NCBI GenBank assembly: GCA_964410915.1
Contig: CAYPIU010000005.1
Location: 10,834-74,833, forward strand
Source: an uncultured Synergistales bacterium
Lineage (GTDB): Bacteria > Synergistota > Synergistia > Synergistales > JAFGMB01
Length of the DNA: 64,000 nt
Reading direction: 5' to 3'
Shown here: one piece after another, positions 26,663-62,483 of the stretch
Layout: each line of letters starts with the position of its first letter
How positions within the stretch are numbered: position 1 is the first letter of the stretch
Notes under the pieces: generated by a model
Databases searched by the model: none
Seen by the model: the letters and a program-made list of their open reading frames with translations, nothing else
What the model was told of the DNA's origin: nothing
Position numbers and translations under genes: made by a program

Positions 26663-28021
26663 GTGACTTCCAGAAAACTTGACAAATGCATGAAACTGGT
26701 CGAGGAAGATAAGGCTATTACCTCACCTGCAGCAAAAGTACCTTACTACCCACTCGTTGTAAAAAGTGCAAAGGGCTCAATTGTCGAAGATGTGGATGGC
26801 AATAAATATATCGACCTTCTTTCAAGTGCAGGCGCAATAAATACCGGTCACTGCCATCCTGACGTGGTAAAAGCCATAAAAGAACAATCAGAAAAACTTA
26901 TACTCTACACCCATGTTTATATGTATCATGAACCTATCATCGATCTTACCAGGGAACTGATAAATATATCTCCAGGCAACTACAGAAAAAGAGTATTTTA
27001 CGGGCTTTGCGGCTCGGATTCTAATGACGGTGCCATAAAACTTGCCCGAACTTCTACCGGCAGAACCAAGATAATCTCTTTCATTCGGGGATACCACGGA
27101 AGCACATATGGAGCTTTATCGCTTAGCGCTGTAAGCCTCCCGATGAGACGGAATCTTGGCCCCCTTCTCCCTGAGATCTACCATGTCCCTTTCCCAGATA
27201 CTTACAGGACACCCTTTCCTGGAATGTCCGGGGATGAAGTCGCGGATTACACTATAAAACAGATCGAGAATGCTTTCGAGACATATATTCCTGCGGATGA
27301 GGTAGCTGCCTTTATTATGGAACCCATCCAGGGCGATGCGGGACTGGTTGTACCACCCATAAAGTTTGTCAAAGATCTGAAAAAACTTTGCGAAAAACAT
27401 GGAATTCTTTTCTTTTCAGAAGAAGTTCAACAGGGTTTTGGCAGAACAGGAAAATGGTTTGGCATAGAAAATTTTGATGTCATACCTGACGGGATAATAA
27501 TGGGCAAGGCTATGGCATCAGGACTTCCGCTCGGGGGAATGGTCGCAAGAGCAGAACTAATGGAAAACTGGGAAGCACCAGCTCATCTTTTTACTGCTGC
27601 GGGAAACCCTGTATGTTGTGCCGCCTCTCTTGCAACCATAAACGTAATAAGAAATGAAAACCTTCTGGACCATGTAAGCACAATTGGGACCTATGCAAAA
27701 GATCGTTTCACCAGAATGCAGGAGAAATATGAGATCATCGGAGATGTACGTGGAATTGGCCTGTCTATCGCTGTGGACCTTGTAAAGGACAGACTTTCCA
27801 AAGACAGGAACAGGGAAGCAGCTGCCAAGATATGTTATAGATGCTGGGAAAAGGGGCTTTTACTATCCTTCTTCAGCGGATCAGTTCTGAGATTCCAGCC
27901 TCCCCTGGTCATTACAAAAGCACAAATAGACGAATCCATGGATAAAATAGATGCAAGTATTGGAGAATACCTGAAAGGTGATATCCCCGATTCAGTCCTT
28001 GAAACTGTCAAGGGCTGGTAA
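26663..28021 (+). CDS. GABA-aminotransferase-like fold-type-I PLP enzyme, probably an amino-acid racemase/epimerase (isoleucine 2-epimerase / BAR-like)
   Basis: DVDGNKYIDL, YHGSTYG, EPIQGDAG (Asp), GKAMASGLP, APAHLFT.AGNPV, LRFQPPL, terminal GW. This matches my recollection of Lactobacillus Ile 2-epimerase. Confidence 0.8.
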   Translation: MTSRKLDKCMKLVEEDKAITSPAAKVPYYPLVVKSAKGSIVEDVDGNKYIDLLSSAGAINTGHCHPDVVKAIKEQSEKLILYTHVYMYHEPIIDLTRELINISPGNYRKRVFYGLCGSDSNDGAIKLARTSTGRTKIISFIRGYHGSTYGALSLSAVSLPMRRNLGPLLPEIYHVPFPDTYRTPFPGMSGDEVADYTIKQIENAFETYIPADEVAAFIMEPIQGDAGLVVPPIKFVKDLKKLCEKHGILFFSEEVQQGFGRTGKWFGIENFDVIPDGIIMGKAMASGLPLGGMVARAELMENWEAPAHLFTAAGNPVCCAASLATINVIRNENLLDHVSTIGTYAKDRFTRMQEKYEIIGDVRGIGLSIAVDLVKDRLSKDRNREAAAKICYRCWEKGLLLSFFSGSVLRFQPPLVITKAQIDESMDKIDASIGEYLKGDIPDSVLETVKGW

Positions 28022-28066
28022 ATACAGAATTAGACTGATAAATATCTATAATAAGGAGGAATTAAG

Positions 28067-28381
28067 TTGGCTGCCAAAAAGATCCCTGCAGGAACCTGGG
28101 TACAGATCGAGACCGTTGTTCTTGAAGCAGGAAACAGGGCTGAGCATCTCCCGGAAGATACTAAAAGCCATCCTTTACAAATGTGGGTTAAGGGTTACCT
28201 TGGAGAAGAAGCACAAATTGGAGATATCGTAACAATAGAAACAATAATAGGACGGCACCTCCAGGGTAAACTTATTGCTGAAAACCCTCCATATAAACAT
28301 AATTTTGGTCGTGCGATTCCCGAACTCCTCTCTGTAGGAGCTGAACTTCGTAACCTTATCAGAATGGGGGAAGAAAAATGA
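28067..28381 (+). CDS. ortA: 2-amino-4-ketopentanoate thiolase alpha subunit
   Basis: GTWVQI..VVL..G.RA.HLPEDTK..PL.MWVKG, ENPPYKHNFG..IPELL pattern. Confidence 0.92.
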   Translation: MAAKKIPAGTWVQIETVVLEAGNRAEHLPEDTKSHPLQMWVKGYLGEEAQIGDIVTIETIIGRHLQGKLIAENPPYKHNFGRAIPELLSVGAELRNLIRMGEEK

Positions 28382-29787
28382 CCGGTAAAAGCTATAGTGA
28401 AGTAATGGCAAGAAAAAACTCTATAATGAAAAAAGCTCTTGGACTCGACTATGAAGAATTTGAGGGTAAGGGGCTGCGTTTTGACTACGAAGGCATGATG
28501 GAAAAAGCCGGTTACTCCATCGAAGAGGTACGAAAGATACAACAGGAAACAAACGTCGGGAACACCCCTCTGATCGAGCTCAGAAATTTAACCGCTGCAG
28601 CAAGGGCCCTTGCTGCACCCGGGAAAGGCGCAAGGATCTTTGTCAAGGATGAAGCAAGCAATCCTTCCGGGAGTTTTAAGGCCAGGCGAGCTTCCGTTTC
28701 ATGCTATTATGCCGCAGAAAAAGGATACAAGGGCGTTATAGCTGCAACAAGCGGTAATTATGGAGCCGCAGTGGCATCACAGGCAAATATGAGAAATCTT
28801 AAGACCATAATAGTACAGGAACTCTTTGACAGCAGGGGTATAGGTCAACCCGAGATACTTGAAAAGGGTAGAAAATGTGAAGCTTATGGATCGGAAGTTT
28901 TACAGTTAACAGTAGGGCCTGAACTTTTTTATACTTTTCTTCTGACCCTCGAAGAAACAGGATATTTTAATGCATCGCTCTATACTCCCTTTGGAATAGC
29001 AGGAATTGAAACTCTTGGTTACGAATTGACAGAACAGGTCAGGGCAAGATGCGGAAAAGACCCTGATGCTGTTCTGGTAACACATGCTGGAGGGGGGAAT
29101 CTTACCGGAACTGCAAGAGGGCTTGCTAAAGCCGGAGCAACCGATACAAAACTTATAGGTGCCTCTGTTGATCTTACGGGACTCCATATGGCAAGTGATA
29201 ATGACTTTAACAGAAAATCATTTACCACTGGACACACGGGCTTTGGAGTTCCATTTGCTACCTGGCCTGACAGGGCTGATGTACCAAGAAATGCCGCAAG
29301 GCCACTGAGATATATGGACCGATACGTTACGATCTCCCAGGGAGAGGTCTTTTATATTACTGAAGCTCTTGCTCAACTCGAAGGTATGGAAAGAGGACCT
29401 GCCGGAAATACATCCCTGACAGCTGCTTTTGCAATTGCCCAGGAGATGGATGAAGATGAAGTTCTTGTAGTTCAGGAAACTGAATATACTGGCGCTGGTA
29501 AACATTTGACTGCTCAACTTACTTTTGCACGGGAAAACGGAATAGATATAAGACGGGGAGATCCTTCAGATCAGGTCCCCGGTAAAAACATCATAATCCC
29601 GGAAAAAGCATCCATGATAAGTGTAAAAGAAATTGAACTTGACAAATTACGTAAATCCTATATCCGTAATTCTCTAAAACACAACGATATTGAACCGGGA
29701 ACACTTGAAGATGAAGATATTGAATTCCTCGCAGAAGAAGTAAGTAAGGATATTTCCTTTATAAACAAGACACTTAAGGAAATGTAA
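28378..29787 (+). CDS. ortB: 2-amino-4-ketopentanoate thiolase beta subunit (PLP)
   Basis: SYSEVMARKNSIMK, KDEASNPSGSFKARRA, ATSGNYGAA, ERGPAGNTS, QETEYTGAGKH; overlaps the ortA stop. Confidence 0.94.
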   Translation: MTGKSYSEVMARKNSIMKKALGLDYEEFEGKGLRFDYEGMMEKAGYSIEEVRKIQQETNVGNTPLIELRNLTAAARALAAPGKGARIFVKDEASNPSGSFKARRASVSCYYAAEKGYKGVIAATSGNYGAAVASQANMRNLKTIIVQELFDSRGIGQPEILEKGRKCEAYGSEVLQLTVGPELFYTFLLTLEETGYFNASLYTPFGIAGIETLGYELTEQVRARCGKDPDAVLVTHAGGGNLTGTARGLAKAGATDTKLIGASVDLTGLHMASDNDFNRKSFTTGHTGFGVPFATWPDRADVPRNAARPLRYMDRYVTISQGEVFYITEALAQLEGMERGPAGNTSLTAAFAIAQEMDEDEVLVVQETEYTGAGKHLTAQLTFARENGIDIRRGDPSDQVPGKNIIIPEKASMISVKEIELDKLRKSYIRNSLKHNDIEPGTLEDEDIEFLAEEVSKDISFINKTLKEM

Positions 29788-36856: not shown

Positions 36857-36983
36857 AGTTTTTTCAAAACAAGATCTTGTTAACAGGCTTCTATTATTAC
36901 ATACAGTTGGTATAATGTTAAAGTGAGTTGTCTTGCTTTGGTAGAAAGATAACATCTTAATCTATAGAACTGGAGGTTGTGGA

Positions 36984-37394
36984 ATGGATAAAAAGACAAG
37001 GATCATAATTCTTGCTATAGTAGCTCTGGCTGTAATTGCCACTTTCATGCTCAAAGAAAAAGACACCGGCGAAAATATTATCAGTGAACAAAAGGAATTA
37101 CCTGTACTTCTTGATCTCAGCATGAAGACCTGACCTGCATGTAAAGAAATGAAAGGAATTCTGGCAGAATTCCAGAAAGATCATGAAGACAAAATCGAGA
37201 TAAGGCTCATTGATGTATGGAAAAACCCTGATGCTGGAGAAAAGTATAAGATCAGAGTCGTTCCCACACTTATCTTCCTTGACCCCTCCGGTAAAGAACT
37301 GTACAGACAGGAAGGGATCATGACTTCCGAAGATTTATTAAAAAAATGGGAAGAACTTGGTTATAACATAACATCTACGGAAGACGGGATCTGA
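36984..37394 (+). CDS. Membrane-anchored selenocysteine thioredoxin (UPAC motif), 136 aa
   Basis: ATG 36984 after GGAGG. In-frame TGA at 37131-37133 reads ...SMKT-U-PAC-KEM and is in frame with ORF 37149..37394 (cis-Pro VVPTLIF). SECIS-like hairpin at 37155-37173. Confidence 0.9.
37155..37173 (+). promoter_or_regulatory. Bacterial SECIS-like hairpin
   Basis: ggaattct-ggc-agaattcc; the apical loop starts with GG, 29 nt after the UGA. Confidence 0.7.
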
Positions 37395-37396
37395 TC

Positions 37397-38098
37397 ATGG
37401 GTGAAATACTGAATACTGTTTATTCAGCTCTACAGGGTGGTGGGACATTAGTTCTTGGAGCATCTTTTCTCTGGGGTATAATAGGTATGCTCTTCAGTCC
37501 ATGCAGCCTCATAGCAATTCCCCTGGTAATTGGCTATATAGAATCCCAGGAAGAAAAGACAACCTCCAGCGCAGCCCTGATATCTTTAGCTTTCTCCCTG
37601 GGAATATTTATAAATATCGCGATCGTGGGCACTGTTATCGCTTCCGCAGGAACCTTAATGGCAGATCTTTCAAGAATTACAAATTATATTGTGGCTGTCA
37701 TTTTTATTCTTTTCGGGCTTCACCTTATGGAAGTGATCAGGATACCCTGGATAAACCTCAAAGGAATGAGTATAAAAAGATCAAGGGGACTCTTCGGTGC
37801 ATGGCTTCTCGGCACCTTCTCCGGAATGGCTATAGGTCCCTGTTCCTTTGCATATCTTGCCCCAATGCTTGTTCTGGCAATGAAAGCAGCAACAGGTAAT
37901 TTTTTATTTGCCTTTCTTATGGTATTAATGTATGCACTGGGCAATTGTCTGATAATTATTATTGCGGGAACATCAGCAGGTTTCGTAACGAGGTATATGA
38001 ACTTTGGTGAAAATTCCAATTTTACCCTGATAATGAACCGTATTTTTGGCGTTATTCTTATACTGGTTTCTCTATATTTTATTTACAGTGCTCCTTAA
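37397..38098 (+). CDS. ccdA: Cytochrome c biogenesis / DsbD-type transmembrane electron carrier CcdA
   Basis: FSPCSLIAIP and IGPCSFAY redox Cys pair, six TM segments; starts 2 bp after the thioredoxin stop. Confidence 0.9.
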   Translation: MGEILNTVYSALQGGGTLVLGASFLWGIIGMLFSPCSLIAIPLVIGYIESQEEKTTSSAALISLAFSLGIFINIAIVGTVIASAGTLMADLSRITNYIVAVIFILFGLHLMEVIRIPWINLKGMSIKRSRGLFGAWLLGTFSGMAIGPCSFAYLAPMLVLAMKAATGNFLFAFLMVLMYALGNCLIIIIAGTSAGFVTRYMNFGENSNFTLIMNRIFGVILILVSLYFIYSAP

Positions 38099-38143: not shown

Positions 38144-38677
38144 ATGTTCATGGATATTGTTAGAAATAGATACAGCGTGAGAAAATATTCATCAAAACAG
38201 GTGGACAGAAAAGATATTGATAAATGTGTCGAAGCTGCAAGGCTTGCCCCTTCCGCCTGCAATTCCCAACCATGGTCATTTCTTATATGCGATGACATGG
38301 ACAGGAATAAATGGATATGTTCGAGGATATTTTCAGGGCCATATGCCATGAACTCTTTCGCGGGAGAGGCACCAGTAATGATATTTGTCAAAACCGAAAG
38401 ATCCATTTACACGGCGAGAATGGGCGGTTTTTTCAGGGGAGTGCAATTCAGCCTTGTTGATATAGGAATAGCGTGTGAACATTTTGCCCTTCAGGCAACT
38501 GAACTTGGTATGGGTACATGCTGGATAGGGTGGTTCAATGAAAAAGCTCTGAAAAGAGAGATCTCATTGCCTCCAAAGGAAAAGATCGACATTATATTAT
38601 CCATGGGCTATCCTTTGGAAAATGATATTCCTTTAAAAAACCGTAAAAATATTGCTTCTATACACCAATACATATAG
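38144..38677 (+). CDS. Nitroreductase family protein
   Basis: RYSVRKY, ARLAPSACNSQPWSF, LGMGTCWIG. Confidence 0.92.
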   Translation: MFMDIVRNRYSVRKYSSKQVDRKDIDKCVEAARLAPSACNSQPWSFLICDDMDRNKWICSRIFSGPYAMNSFAGEAPVMIFVKTERSIYTARMGGFFRGVQFSLVDIGIACEHFALQATELGMGTCWIGWFNEKALKREISLPPKEKIDIILSMGYPLENDIPLKNRKNIASIHQYI

Positions 38678-38711: not shown

Positions 38712-38739
38712 TTGACAAAAAATATTCCTACTTTATAAT
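38712..38739 (+). promoter_or_regulatory. Sigma70 promoter of the T-box leader
   Basis: TTGACA-16 bp-TATAAT. Confidence 0.8.
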
Positions 38740-38779
38740 TATCTGAAATCAACCAATGGTAATATTCAGTTTTAAATTG

Positions 38780-39031
38780 GCAAAAGCGATGAACCTGGGC
38801 GCTGACCAGCATAATATCCGACAGAGAAGGGCATTCACCGGCTGAAAGGTGCCCGCGGAATAGGTGGTTTGCTCAAAACCAGGTGAGCAGGATCTGAAAG
38901 GGAAACCGGAGTAAGATCCCGGATTGGAACTCCGTAAAAAGTTTCGAGCGGGACATTTTTTAAAATGTCCAAGCAGGGTGGTATCGCGAGTATAACAGGC
39001 TCGTCCCTTCATGGGACGGGCCTGTTTTTTT
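38780..39031 (+). promoter_or_regulatory. T-box riboswitch (tRNA-Lys specifier AAA) with terminator
   Basis: Stem I with GA motif (gcgatga/tgagc), AG bulge gacagaga, loop ggctgaaa and AAA-A at 38875-38878. T-box AAGCAGGGTGGTATCGCG at 38971-38988, antiterminator partner TCGTCCCT, terminator 38994-39031. Confidence 0.9.
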
Positions 39032-39049
39032 ATAAGGAGATGAGACTTT

Positions 39050-45924: not shown

Positions 45925-48114
45925 TCATAATTTTCGGAACATGATAAACATTAGAGGCATCATCAGCAGAATAAGAGCTCCTGAAGGTCCCACGTTACAA
46001 CCGCTGGAACCTCCTCCATGGCCATCTTCTATTTCACCGGGTTCGGGGACCTCGGAACCTGCAAGGATGGAATCATCCAGAAGTGCACCAAAGACCTCTC
46101 CCCAGCTTTCAGAAGGAAGATCTGCGCATGCTTTCCACTGCCCCTCGCCAAGATCGGTCCAGTTAACCTGGATCTCTGTCCAGCCTGAACCAGAGTACCA
46201 CCACAGATTAGGTTTATTATCGGGAAGCCATTCATAATCAGCCTCATCCAGATACCCGCATATCTCTACCGCACAGATATCATCAGAATTTACCAGATCA
46301 AGCTGGAAGAAAAGGCTTTCACCATCTTCTGGAACTTCACTCAGAAGGGGTTCTATATTCATTGAAGGTTCCCGAATATCTCCACTCACTTCTCCGTTGT
46401 TCTCCTCACTACATGGAGTTACTTTGACCTCATAGAATATCCCGTCAGGTGCAGGATATACTCCCTCGGTGGACGTGGGGAAAGGTTCCTCTTCGTAACG
46501 CCAGACCTGACAACCGTTCCCGGGATTTGACGTACCAAGCCAGAGTATGTCTTCGCCATCCTCCCGGGTTGTCACCATAGTTCTTCCGCCGTACTGGAGG
46601 GGATCTCCAAAGCCATCCTGCATAACCACTTCGAAGTTTAATCCATCTTCAGACTTGTAAAGATCAAACCCGACAGGTGAACCATGATTCAGGAAAACAT
46701 CTACGATCTCTGAAAGACTCGGGGATACGGGAAGTGTAAGACCAGCCATTTCACAAAGTGCCCTTACGTGAACCGTAACAAGGTTTTTCAGGACATCCAC
46801 AGCCACATTCTGGTTTTCCGGCATCAGTTCAATGCTGTCCCAGTCTATGGAATGAAGGAAGGACCGCCAGTCGAAGGTGGATATGTAAAGATCTCCGTCA
46901 TGGATACCCCATGTCCACAGGTAAACGTTGGTCGGTACACCAAAACCTGGAGCTTTTAGACCAGTCCCGCTACCCATGACCGTTTCCCAGCTATCTCCGT
47001 CAAAACGATAAAGATAGGAGGGAACTATACACTTTAACATCCTTGTAAGCAGCTCTTCCTCTCCCGCATTTAGAATATCAAGATCATAAAGCGGGAAACC
47101 GCCGTTCAACGTGGCGATGTAAAGATGATCGCCATAGACAAAACCGTTTGCTCCCACGTGAATGGACTGCTTGAGGCCCGGAGTCTCATCCACCCAGGAA
47201 CCTTGAATAAATGATTCGCCCTCCGAATTAACACAGGGCCCAAGATCTTCTTCCTCACATACAGGCTCCGGAACCCACCTTAAAAGACGCCAGCCATTCT
47301 CTCCATCCCCGGTAACTGCCCACAGGCTTCCCTGGTAAGAGACCAGGTCCGTTACATAGCCTTTTCCTTCAAAACCATCATTGGAAAAACGTTCCCAGCC
47401 GGATAAAGGATCAGAAGTAGAATACACCCCATACTCATAGGCCACAACAAATTGTCCGTCGTATTCCACCATACCCCTGTATGAGTAAGCTTTGTTCTCC
47501 TCCAGGTCTCCGGAGACCACTTCAGGACTTACATCAACAGGAGCGCTATCACAATCTGATATGGCAATTATCTTGGGGACACCGTCCCAATCTTGTGAAG
47601 ACATTTTCAGGTTCATAGTACCCGCGTAAAGTACTCCTTCGTAATTGTACATTTTGCGGAATCCCTGATTTCCCGAGAAATCCCCCACTCCGGTGAAAGG
47701 TGTAAGAGGAACAACTTCCCATTCCCCATTCTGGGTTATATTCTTCCGCATTATCTCCACTGTTCCCGGATCCCATGTTTCGGAAGGAGGAAGGCTGTCG
47801 CCAAAAATAGAAGGATCCATTGCCGTTCCCAGAGGAGACATAGGACCCAGAAATGCCCCATGAGGGAAATTTCGGTAGGCGCCTACGTACAGATATTCAT
47901 CCCCATCACACTGCAGAGTGCCCATTGACCATGCGTAGGAATTATTACGAGAGGGTTTTTCAGAATAAGGGGACCCTGGTACCACTGTTCCATCAACAAG
48001 ACCATCCTTTCCAACCTGGGTCCATCCCGGAGGGATCTCAGCCCAGGCACTGGAGGAAAGGACCATGCCCAAGAGAAAAATCACTATCAGTACAAAACGC
48101 ATAGATCTGTTCAT
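45925..48114 (-). CDS. Secreted surface protein with SYNERG-CTERM-like sorting tail (729 aa)
   Basis: Signal peptide ending AWA, acidic Trp/Gly-rich beta-propeller-like body, C-terminal GGGSSGCNVG + hydrophobic helix + RK. Confidence 0.88.
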   Translation of the reverse strand: MNRSMRFVLIVIFLLGMVLSSSAWAEIPPGWTQVGKDGLVDGTVVPGSPYSEKPSRNNSYAWSMGTLQCDGDEYLYVGAYRNFPHGAFLGPMSPLGTAMDPSIFGDSLPPSETWDPGTVEIMRKNITQNGEWEVVPLTPFTGVGDFSGNQGFRKMYNYEGVLYAGTMNLKMSSQDWDGVPKIIAISDCDSAPVDVSPEVVSGDLEENKAYSYRGMVEYDGQFVVAYEYGVYSTSDPLSGWERFSNDGFEGKGYVTDLVSYQGSLWAVTGDGENGWRLLRWVPEPVCEEEDLGPCVNSEGESFIQGSWVDETPGLKQSIHVGANGFVYGDHLYIATLNGGFPLYDLDILNAGEEELLTRMLKCIVPSYLYRFDGDSWETVMGSGTGLKAPGFGVPTNVYLWTWGIHDGDLYISTFDWRSFLHSIDWDSIELMPENQNVAVDVLKNLVTVHVRALCEMAGLTLPVSPSLSEIVDVFLNHGSPVGFDLYKSEDGLNFEVVMQDGFGDPLQYGGRTMVTTREDGEDILWLGTSNPGNGCQVWRYEEEPFPTSTEGVYPAPDGIFYEVKVTPCSEENNGEVSGDIREPSMNIEPLLSEVPEDGESLFFQLDLVNSDDICAVEICGYLDEADYEWLPDNKPNLWWYSGSGWTEIQVNWTDLGEGQWKACADLPSESWGEVFGALLDDSILAGSEVPEPGEIEDGHGGGSSGCNVGPSGALILLMMPLMFIMFRKL

Positions 48115-48139: not shown

Positions 48140-48225
48140 GCACTAAGGCAGCCCGGCGGTCATGGGTTGTACCTTTAGACCCGTAGCTTTGCGTCACTGT
48201 CTTTTGACAGTTTTGCCATTATCTC
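48140..48225 (-). ncRNA. c-di-GMP-I (GEMM) riboswitch
   Basis: Minus strand: GGCAAA-ACUGUC-AAAA-GACAGU-GACGCAAAGCUACGGGUCUAAAGG...CCCAUGACCGCCGGGCUGCC, about 30 nt upstream of the start codon. Confidence 0.9.
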
Positions 48226-48827
48226 TCAAATCTACATTCTTCAGAACAAAAAAGGAGCAATGAAAAATCTTAAGAAACCTTGCACCCCCCCTTTGAGAGC
48301 GGGACAAACGAATAAGATCTTAAAAAAACTTTATCCAAATCTTTTAGATATGCATTATAGGAATGAATGATCTATAGGAAAAGTATGTAAAAAGGAATGT
48401 AAAAATATGGCGATCGAAAAGAGATTAACGCTATAATCATAAAATTTAGTGAGTAATTATTTAATTTATACTATTAGATGTTTAATATTATTACATAGTG
48501 CTTAAACACATGGATGGGACTTTTAGCCATATTTTAATGGGTATTTAGACTCATTTATGATAAAAGTCGAAGGTTAAAAATATTATTCTTGATCTTTTAA
48601 TTGCAAAAAGGGGGAATAAGTGTGATTTTTTCTCTCTTAGAGATAGTAATTGATCAGCCTGACGGATTAATAAACACGTTCCTGCCGCCATTTTCCGCTG
48701 CATCCCTCTGATAAAAGATTTTTGCAGAGAAAATTGTTTCAGACCCAGTCCGGCTATTAAAATCTCTGCCTTCAGACTCGATGTTCTTCCTGTCAGATCT
48801 GTGGGATCTTTCAGGTAAAAGGGGGAA

Positions 48828-61718: not shown

Positions 61719-62483
61719 TCAGCGAATCTGCACCGCTTTTTTGACTTTTTCCAGACTTTCCTCTGTCAGACCAAGTAGGGGACCGATCTCTTCCAGCTGA
61801 GGAAATGCTCCCCAACCTGCCAGAAAACCGTTGACCCTTGCAACTGCAGTTGAATTTATTAGATCATTATCATCAGGATAGTATTTTTTGAATTCTTCCA
61901 GTATGGCAGAATGCATTTTTAAACTGTATTTCTGATGATAATTTTCCGCCATATAGAATACTTTAAATGGGGTTACAAGAGTCTGTATCTTTTTTGAGTT
62001 TTCTTTTTCCCATTTCTCTATTGATCTCAATATTTCTGATTCTTGCAGATCATCGTGGGAAAATATGATGGACATATATTGTTTTGACCAGGTTTTTCTT
62101 GAAGGGTCATGACTTTTCCAGAAAATATCAAGAAGCTCACTGTAAGATATTTTCTTTGGGTCAAAATCTATCTGTATGGTCTCCGTATGATCTCCAAGTT
62201 CATAATAAGTAGGATTCTCTTTCGATCCTCCCGAATAACCAACTCTTGTTCTTATAACACCCGGGATGATACCAAACCTGGCATCAGGACCCCAGAATCA
62301 GCCAAGGGCAAAAGTAGCGGTTTCGTAATTATCGGGGATATTTTTGTCAATAGGCGGAACCAGTTGTGTCTTAACATCTGAATACTCCACAGAACATGCC
62401 TCCCTTTGCGGAAATATATGGAATACCAAAAAGAGAATAACTAAAACGACAGTTAGGTTTGTGAATATTTTATCGATACTCAT
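61719..62483 (-). CDS. msrA: Selenocysteine-containing methionine sulfoxide reductase A with N-terminal TM/signal segment (254 aa)
   Basis: ORFs 62298..62483 and 61719..62075 are one frame joined by TGA 62298-62300: ETATFALG-U-FWG, then RTRVGYSGG, NPTY, DHTE, FW..HDP and AENYHQKY. Confidence 0.92.
62262..62294 (-). promoter_or_regulatory. Bacterial SECIS-like hairpin of msrA
   Basis: mRNA: lower stem UGGGGU/AUCCCG, upper stem GAUGCCA/UGGUAUC, loop GGUU starting 19 nt after the UGA. Confidence 0.75.

Follow-up and report, generated by a model that had tools for sequence, protein, structure and literature searches.

A predicted membrane-anchored UxxC selenoprotein thioredoxin paired with CcdA in an uncultured Synergistales bacterium

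The thioredoxin gene at 36984..37394 (+) of the window (the whole stretch of 64,000 nucleotides analysed here) is a genuine but mis-annotated selenoprotein gene of an already known kind. Judging from sequence comparison, the attacking Cys of its membrane-anchored product is almost certainly a selenocysteine (Sec) encoded by UGA. The reading that we favor, with a probability of roughly 0.8, is that of one gene in which Sec is inserted by means of a SECIS element and whose product has its thioredoxin domain outside the membrane and is re-reduced by CcdA. Compared with the known kind, the twist is a modest one, namely that this protein would be exported and fed by CcdA.

One frame across an in-frame TGA

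The frame that opens at ATG 36984 has 136 codons, including the UGA, and ends at the TGA stop at 37392-37394; its sole interruption is the TGA at 37131-37133 (+), which is codon 50. The mechanical ORF list splits the gene into 36984-37133 (49 aa) and 37149-37394 (81 aa). The preliminary description had taken the real gene to be larger than the 81-aa ORF and to have a ribosome-binding site and an N-terminal transmembrane helix, all of which holds. A Shine-Dalgarno sequence, GGAGG, can be read at 36972..36976 (+), 7 nt before ATG 36984, and residues 7-22 (IIILAIVALAVIATFM; 37002..37049, +) form a hydrophobic signal-anchor helix. No comparable Shine-Dalgarno site was seen in the inspected sequence before the internal ATG 37149. 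A consensus scan gives one weak sigma-70-like promoter candidate, TTAACA-16-TACAGT (9/12 matches), at 36880..36907 (+), within the 217-bp divergent intergenic region. Translated through the UGA, the product reads MDKKTR-IIILAIVALAVIATFM-LKEKD...LPVLLDLSMKT-U-PAC-KEMKGILAEF....

Region 36900-37500 is letter-identical across four independent metagenome assemblies; hence, the TGA at 37131-37133 is not a sequencing error, and the TGT or TGC that had been suggested as a possible refutation appears in none of them. Elsewhere TGA is an ordinary stop, as it terminates 13 of the 47 long ORFs in the window (the thioredoxin gene included). This rules out a global reassignment of UGA, and any decoding at codon 50 must therefore be local.

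When U is written as C, the product matches the Pfam Thioredoxin family (PF00085) with E = 4.9e-13 and 49.4 bits (cut-off 23.5) in a stretch, residues 31-121, that includes the TGA; it also matches PF13098 (9.2e-12, 45.7 bits for a cut-off of 27). The active site U-P-A-C, equivalent to CxxC, occupies 37131..37142 (+) and is placed at the N-terminus of helix alpha-1 by the alignments and by the AlphaFold (AF2) secondary structure of a Cys homologue. The conserved cis-Pro loop V93-P94-T95 is at 37260..37268 (+), with P94 and T95 invariant in the alignment. A domain score above gathering, a CxxC equivalent at the start of alpha-1, and a cis-Pro loop are the marks of the thioredoxin fold. The AF2 model obtained for P0010, a Cys homologue (pLDDT >92 in the domain), shows helix 3-22, a linker, strand beta-1, and then the CxxC where helix alpha-1 begins; missing from the 81-aa fragment are therefore beta-1, the active site, and the first part of alpha-1. 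The top fold matches in the PDB are classical thioredoxins (TM about 0.75), including the periplasmic TrxP, and the TlpA type is less close.

The protein search returned two types of relatives. The first consists of proteins, 127-169 aa long, in which a hydrophobic N-terminal segment is followed by ...LPRLVDLGADKCIPCKMMAP..., and the second of fragments of 77-82 aa, all of which start at a Met just past the active site (MKGILEEF...), some being named 'thioredoxin family protein [Synergistales bacterium]'. In the relatives' DNA, codon 50 is TGA in each of the 14 distinct Synergistales-type orthologues, whose identity goes as low as ~49%, and the frame upstream of it is conserved as well (anchor helix, LP[VI]LLD[LM]..., U-P-A-C). 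The search for Cys orthologues proposed in the preliminary description yields 78 homologues with TGC or TGT at this position: 77 PVC-type relatives (Verrucomicrobiota, Planctomycetota, Omnitrophota, and others) and the fully syntenic orthologue L112 (L112:3001-3471). In the aligned homologues, codon 50 corresponds to the first Cys of CxxC, so that the TGA does fall exactly on the nucleophilic Cys, as had been stated. A UGA aligned with Cys and conservation on both sides of it are among the marks of a bacterial selenoprotein gene.

L112 is the only Cys (TGC) orthologue found inside the syntenic Synergistales clade. It is called as a single 156-aa protein (...LLDMYVDS-C-PAC-KMMKGILDEF...), and its neighbours are those of the window (AMP-ligase, M20 peptidase, trx, ccdA, asd). 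On this comparison, L112 settles the question of whether there is one gene. If the TGA were instead a true stop, the locus would produce a membrane peptide of 49 aa, and re-initiation at ATG 37149 would add a thioredoxin-like fragment of 81 aa. Gene callers do give such a pair of genes (47-56 aa and 77-82 aa) in every relative, and ATG 37149 is conserved (M56 is invariant). Yet the fragment would have neither beta-1 nor CxxC, its ATG is preceded by no Shine-Dalgarno sequence, and the stretch between the TGA and ATG 37149 (P-A-C-K/V-E/Q/K/V) is conserved in frame, in addition to the Cys orthologue being one ORF. Termination would also leave unexplained the TGA-specific conservation and the frozen synonymous sites described below, and we regard it as highly unlikely.

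By Nei-Gojobori estimates, pN is much lower than pS on either side of the TGA (dN/dS ~0.2-0.35 where calculable); both halves of the gene are thus under purifying selection. This bears on the suspicion, which an in-frame stop and an annotation that splits the gene might raise, that a nonsense mutation has turned the gene into a decaying pseudogene. A decaying gene is hard to reconcile with a TGA shared by 14 orthologues of such divergence, with constraint on both sides of it, with the absence of frameshifts, and with four identical assemblies. The probability of this reading is negligible, and the comparative data effectively refute it.

The family is large (1667 clusters at 50% identity, E <= 0.001), and in the sample examined TGA forms occur only in Synergistales-type loci. 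Among the other truncated relatives, P0063 (locus L113) is the only further Sec form; P0053 and P0156, which were considered as such, are actually Cys forms with mis-called starts or contig ends. The top match of the 81-aa fragment is P0025, a protein of 3267 aa (E = 3.3e-53) that matches in 17 separate stretches, of which the best-scoring aligns with the VVPTLIFLD region (residues 40-63 of the query); P0025 is possibly a repeat protein, possibly an artefact.

The hairpin downstream of the TGA

A SECIS-like hairpin with a 7-bp stem (GGAAUUC/GAAUUCC) and the loop UGGCA is found at 37155..37173 (+), where folding, frozen synonymous sites, pairing, and decay in L112 all point to it. In the window sequence it can be written as GGAAUUCU-GGC-AGAAUUCC, i.e., 8 bp with a GGC loop whose first G (37163) is 29 nt past the UGA. 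The family-conserved form has a stem of 6-7 bp and a 5-nt UGGNN loop, and the closing U-A pair is not conserved. Hence, the 8-bp hairpin with a GG loop at 29 nt of the preliminary description is right for the window sequence but not family-wide, whereas its more general statement, that the geometry is the one expected of a bacterial SECIS, is borne out by the following comparison. The published bSECIS model (PMC13188914, Fig. 2 legend) has a loop of 3-9 nt, an upper stem of 4-16 bp, a spacing of 16-37 nt, the loop pattern N1-G[G/U]-N-N2 with G in the first two loop positions, and a minimum free energy (MFE) of at most -7.5 kcal/mol (PMC13188914). The hairpin has a loop of 3-5 nt, a stem of 7-8 bp, U-GG-C-A in the loop, a spacing of 28-29 nt, and an MFE of -9.2 kcal/mol when the UGA to +46 is folded, or -7.2 kcal/mol for the hairpin alone.

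The isolated hairpin is more stable than shuffled sequences (z = -3.5, 0/200 shuffles as good), and a perfect stem of at least 7 bp so placed follows only 0.6-1.2% of the TGA triplets in the window. The fold of the 70-nt context does not differ significantly from shuffles (z = -0.59), and only the isolated fold and the comparative data are informative on the hairpin. Rfam gives nothing SECIS-like over the window at the gathering threshold, or over 37080-37260 at the E-value threshold.

The comparative data are the following. The hairpin occurs at the same place in every TGA orthologue. Among well-conserved degenerate codons, synonymous pairwise differences amount to 0.04 in the hairpin (codons 58-63) versus 0.57 elsewhere (Mann-Whitney p = 2e-4), with I59 = ATT, L60 = CTG, E62 = GAA, and F63 = TTC always, except for ATT>ATC in L113. 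The equivalent 36 nt have an MFE of -8.1 kcal/mol in Sec forms versus -4.5 kcal/mol in Cys forms, despite the lower GC of the former (p = 6e-5). In the 7-bp stem, 98% of the cells of the alignment are paired, against at most 69% in slid controls, and none of 500 shuffles equals the observed score; compensatory changes affect two pairs (G-C to C-G in two sequences, U-A to C-G in L113), and one pair varies with G-U. In L113, the synonymous ATT>ATC is matched by GAA>GGA, which gives the stem GAAUCC/GGAUUC. This covariation is thin, since 4 of the 7 stem pairs are invariant, and the hairpin is short and AU-rich, its outer pair being mismatched in two orthologues. Only the Cys orthologue L112 departs from an otherwise frozen synonymous site, by GGA>GGC, and this disrupts the stem (-2.2 versus -7.4 kcal/mol). 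The L112 hairpin thus looks like a SECIS decaying after the loss of Sec, and remnant SECIS-like structures are known downstream of Cys codons in Cys forms derived from selenoproteins (PMC1794560).

These data also bear on whether the palindrome has some other function. A terminator scan flags the minus strand, and the sequence can be seen as two overlapping EcoRI-type sites. A minus-strand terminator is rejected, as no minus-strand gene ends at the hairpin. Both non-SECIS readings conflict with a conservation that goes with the TGA and has disappeared from the Cys orthologue, and with compensatory changes that keep the pairing but not GAATTC (GAAUCC/GGAUUC in L113). An origin of this kind is most improbable.

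If the hairpin is a SECIS, we infer that a ribosome arriving at UGA50 would meet it 21-40 nt downstream, with UGGCA as its apical loop, and that it would recruit the complex of SelB, GTP, and Sec-tRNA(Sec), so that Sec would be inserted instead of termination taking place. None of selA, selB, selC, and selD was found in the window or in the fetched loci, and a tRNA-Sec is absent both from the window and from 33 related loci. Among labelled relatives, those closest to the window are Synergistales; of 14 genomes of this phylum (Synergistetes), 13 are reported to use Sec, and most are rich in selenoproteins (PMC5029168). One could suppose that UGA50 is read through without selenium, by a near-cognate Trp or Cys tRNA or thanks to a local recoding signal, giving a protein with W or C at the first position of CxxC. 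Sec machinery is indeed not seen in the window, and a hairpin could in principle stimulate read-through. Such decoding would not account for a UGA exactly at the redox Cys, for a hairpin that matches the bSECIS loop pattern and spacing (PMC13188914), or for a second gene with the same arrangement at its catalytic Cys (see following), all this in a Sec-rich phylum. Selenium-free read-through is thus very unlikely, and the insertion of Sec remains the preferred reading.

Pairing with ccdA and relation to known systems

The gene that follows, at 37397..38098 (+), codes for a CcdA of the DsbD_TM family (Pfam DsbD_TM, 2.1e-15) with the P-C motifs FSPCS and GPCSF. It starts at 37397, 2 nt past the thioredoxin stop, and is translationally coupled to it. 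A CcdA homologue is found downstream of the thioredoxin gene in 96 of the 111 fetched loci and in 3 of 5 loci fetched later, and immediately downstream in every Sec-form locus with a contig long enough. The pair is thus ancient and tight, which agrees with the tight coupling previously described. In Synergistales loci only (19 loci), a nitroreductase-family gene, in the window at 38144..38677 (+) (Pfam 3.8e-30), is conserved in third position; an M20 peptidase, the nitroreductase, and rubrerythrin are found near the gene in these loci.

The thioredoxin domain probably lies outside the cytoplasmic membrane. We infer an N-in topology because the positive residues of MDKKTR precede the helix, a net acidic stretch follows it, and homologues have cleavable signal peptides (that of P0020 is read as of lipoprotein type). 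An anchor or signal peptide together with genetic pairing with ccdA is the arrangement of ResA and StoA. Most likely, by analogy, the product is an extracytoplasmic Sec-thioredoxin that CcdA keeps reduced; for both the outside-facing topology and the electron transfer, it is the gene pairing and the positive-inside rule that suggest them. The N-terminal helix would anchor the product, and the U-P-A-C centre would reduce disulfides (or selenenylsulfides and sulfenic acids) of exported proteins by nucleophilic attack of its selenolate. The co-translated CcdA would then re-reduce the oxidised Se-S form with electrons from cytoplasmic thioredoxin, as in pathways of the CcdA/ResA/Etrx type.

In known pathways, ResA, CcmG/TlpA, StoA, and Etrx are the acceptors of CcdA electrons, and the CcdA-dependent extracytoplasmic reductases include Streptococcus pneumoniae Etrx1/2, which feed MsrAB2. 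Bacteroides TrxP, which is among the fold-search matches, can be grouped with them. The window protein resembles all of these in having an anchored or exported thioredoxin fold next to a shuttle of the CcdA/DsbD type by which it is presumably reduced. It differs in that they all have Cys where it has Sec, and in that its fold is nearest to classical thioredoxins; its scores for ResA (NF002854, 17.9 for a cut-off of 170) and StoA (NF041202, 17.4 for 210) are far below threshold. A literature search combining selenoprotein and CcdA found no relevant paper.

Among bacterial selenoproteins, UxxC proteins of thioredoxin fold are the commonest kind. The Sec-containing Trx family (PF00085, UxxC; Treponema denticola type) is catalogued (PMC9312934, PMC13188914), and the word 'hidden' used in the preliminary description is therefore apt for the database annotation but not for the biology. 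The window protein has in common with this family the thioredoxin fold, a Sec as the N-terminal residue of CxxC, and a SECIS within the coding region just after the UGA. Unlike it, a soluble cytoplasmic equivalent of TrxA, the window protein has a membrane anchor and is paired with ccdA, and its motif is U-P-A-C and not of the WCGPC type. The TrxA equivalog models are not reached (TIGR01068, 49.1 for a cut-off of 96.8; NF006898, 29.4 for 138), nor are the NCBIfam selenoprotein models SaoT (NF040730, 21.7 for 65) and PDO_seleno_TRX (TIGR02187, 24 for 185) or TsoB (NF045694, 24.5 for 805), and HUIPC (NF047660) has no match at E <= 0.01. Since no cut-off of an NCBIfam selenoprotein or TrxA equivalog model is reached, databases hold only the fragments. 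Predicted exported UxxC selenoproteins have also been described, as 'thiol:disulfide interchange protein' (PF13098), DsbA-like, and DsbG-like proteins (PMC9312934, PMC1794560). Compared by description, these resemble the window protein in belonging to the thioredoxin superfamily and having UxxC, and PF13098 is matched; they are described in Deltaproteobacteria, and the texts searched do not mention a pairing with ccdA.

A further comparison is with the Cys-form sister family (L003-L080; Verrucomicrobiota, Planctomycetota, Omnitrophota, and others), which is ~40-50% identical and of equal length, likewise has the anchor or signal, and also pairs trx with ccdA. It differs by having CIPC where the window protein has UPAC and by lacking a conserved hairpin. 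Its genes are mostly in clusters with ArsR, ACR3, and DGC-domain proteins, whereas the window gene is beside the dap operon. Over these 78 loci, an ArsR HTH protein is found in 42, a DGC-domain protein in 22, and an ACR3/SBF carrier in 18. Another Cys-form locus, L114, has ArsP_1 and Thioredoxin_3 nearby, and some PVC loci add a paralogue of ~310 aa that combines a signal peptide and a long N-terminal domain with the same Trx domain.

The window has other features as well. The asd-dapA-dapB-dapH-lysC operon is preceded by a T-box leader at 38780-39011 (+) (RF00230, 70.5 bits for a gathering threshold of 93, E = 1.8e-15, full model length), which is flanked (38712-39049) by a perfect TTGACA-16-TATAAT promoter at 38712-38739 and a terminator hairpin at 38994-39026. 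A c-di-GMP-I-GGC riboswitch at 48143-48226 (-), which scores 67.6 bits and thereby exceeds the gathering threshold, immediately precedes a 729-aa ORF at 45925-48114 (-) that has no Pfam match. An ornithine-fermentation set at 26663-29787 (+), syntenic with L098 (class-III aminotransferase, OrtA, OrtB/PALP), is accompanied by several TRAP DctM transporters and 2-oxoacid dehydrogenase E2/E3 genes; these fermentation and transporter genes are ordinary and fit an amino-acid-fermenting Synergistales lifestyle.

A second candidate and a possible place of selenium in the envelope

A scan for TGA-interrupted frames in the window gives a second selenoprotein candidate, an N-terminally anchored MsrA at 61719..62483 (-), whose TGA (62298-62300) is at the catalytic Cys of GCFWG. 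The frame matches Pfam PMSR (6.3e-42) and is split into 61 aa and 118 aa in the ORF list. A strong, SECIS-like hairpin with a GGUU loop directly follows the TGA (-19 kcal/mol, z = -2.8, 1/200 shuffles as good), and the protein has its own N-terminal signal-anchor. More than 2000 homologues match it, with a query coverage of 75-97% for the best. In the PDB, the best match is the MsrA of Clostridium oremlandii (4u66/4lwj, E = 2.5e-57), the natural selenoprotein form. Going by its sequence, the MsrA speaks for the Sec trait and is a candidate client of the thioredoxin.

By analogy, a Sec-MsrA is an attractive candidate client for a Sec-thioredoxin. The gene lies 25 kb from the thioredoxin gene; no MsrA is found within 3 kb of it in the 111 fetched loci, and no client gene adjoins it. 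It is a speculative and rather doubtful proposal that the anchored Sec-thioredoxin serves specifically to reduce the anchored Sec-MsrA. Electrons would pass from cytoplasmic Trx to CcdA, to Sec-Trx, and to Sec-MsrA, in an all-selenium chain for extracytoplasmic methionine sulfoxide repair. If true, it would be the extracytoplasmic counterpart of the Sec-glutaredoxin and Sec-MsrA of Clostridium oremlandii, a pair cited for its 'tandem use of selenocysteine' as reference 60 of PMC9312934, and efficient resolution of the Sec-MsrA selenenylsulfide would call for a selenolate as reductant.

The thioredoxin gene does not overturn current understanding. Its Synergistales orthologue group is deposited as 'hypothetical' proteins of 47-56 aa and 'thioredoxin family' proteins of 77-82 aa. 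As the deposits are split and no NCBIfam model rescues them, selenoproteome counts for a Sec-rich phylum are too low. The window and L112 also provide a clean natural Sec/Cys pair with what appears to be a decaying SECIS, useful for studies of Sec-to-Cys conversion. For the biology of the organism, the gene would place selenium chemistry, fed by CcdA, in the cell envelope of an anaerobe, and it raises the questions of whether a selenenylsulfide can be reduced by the dithiol of CcdA and of which clients need such chemistry.
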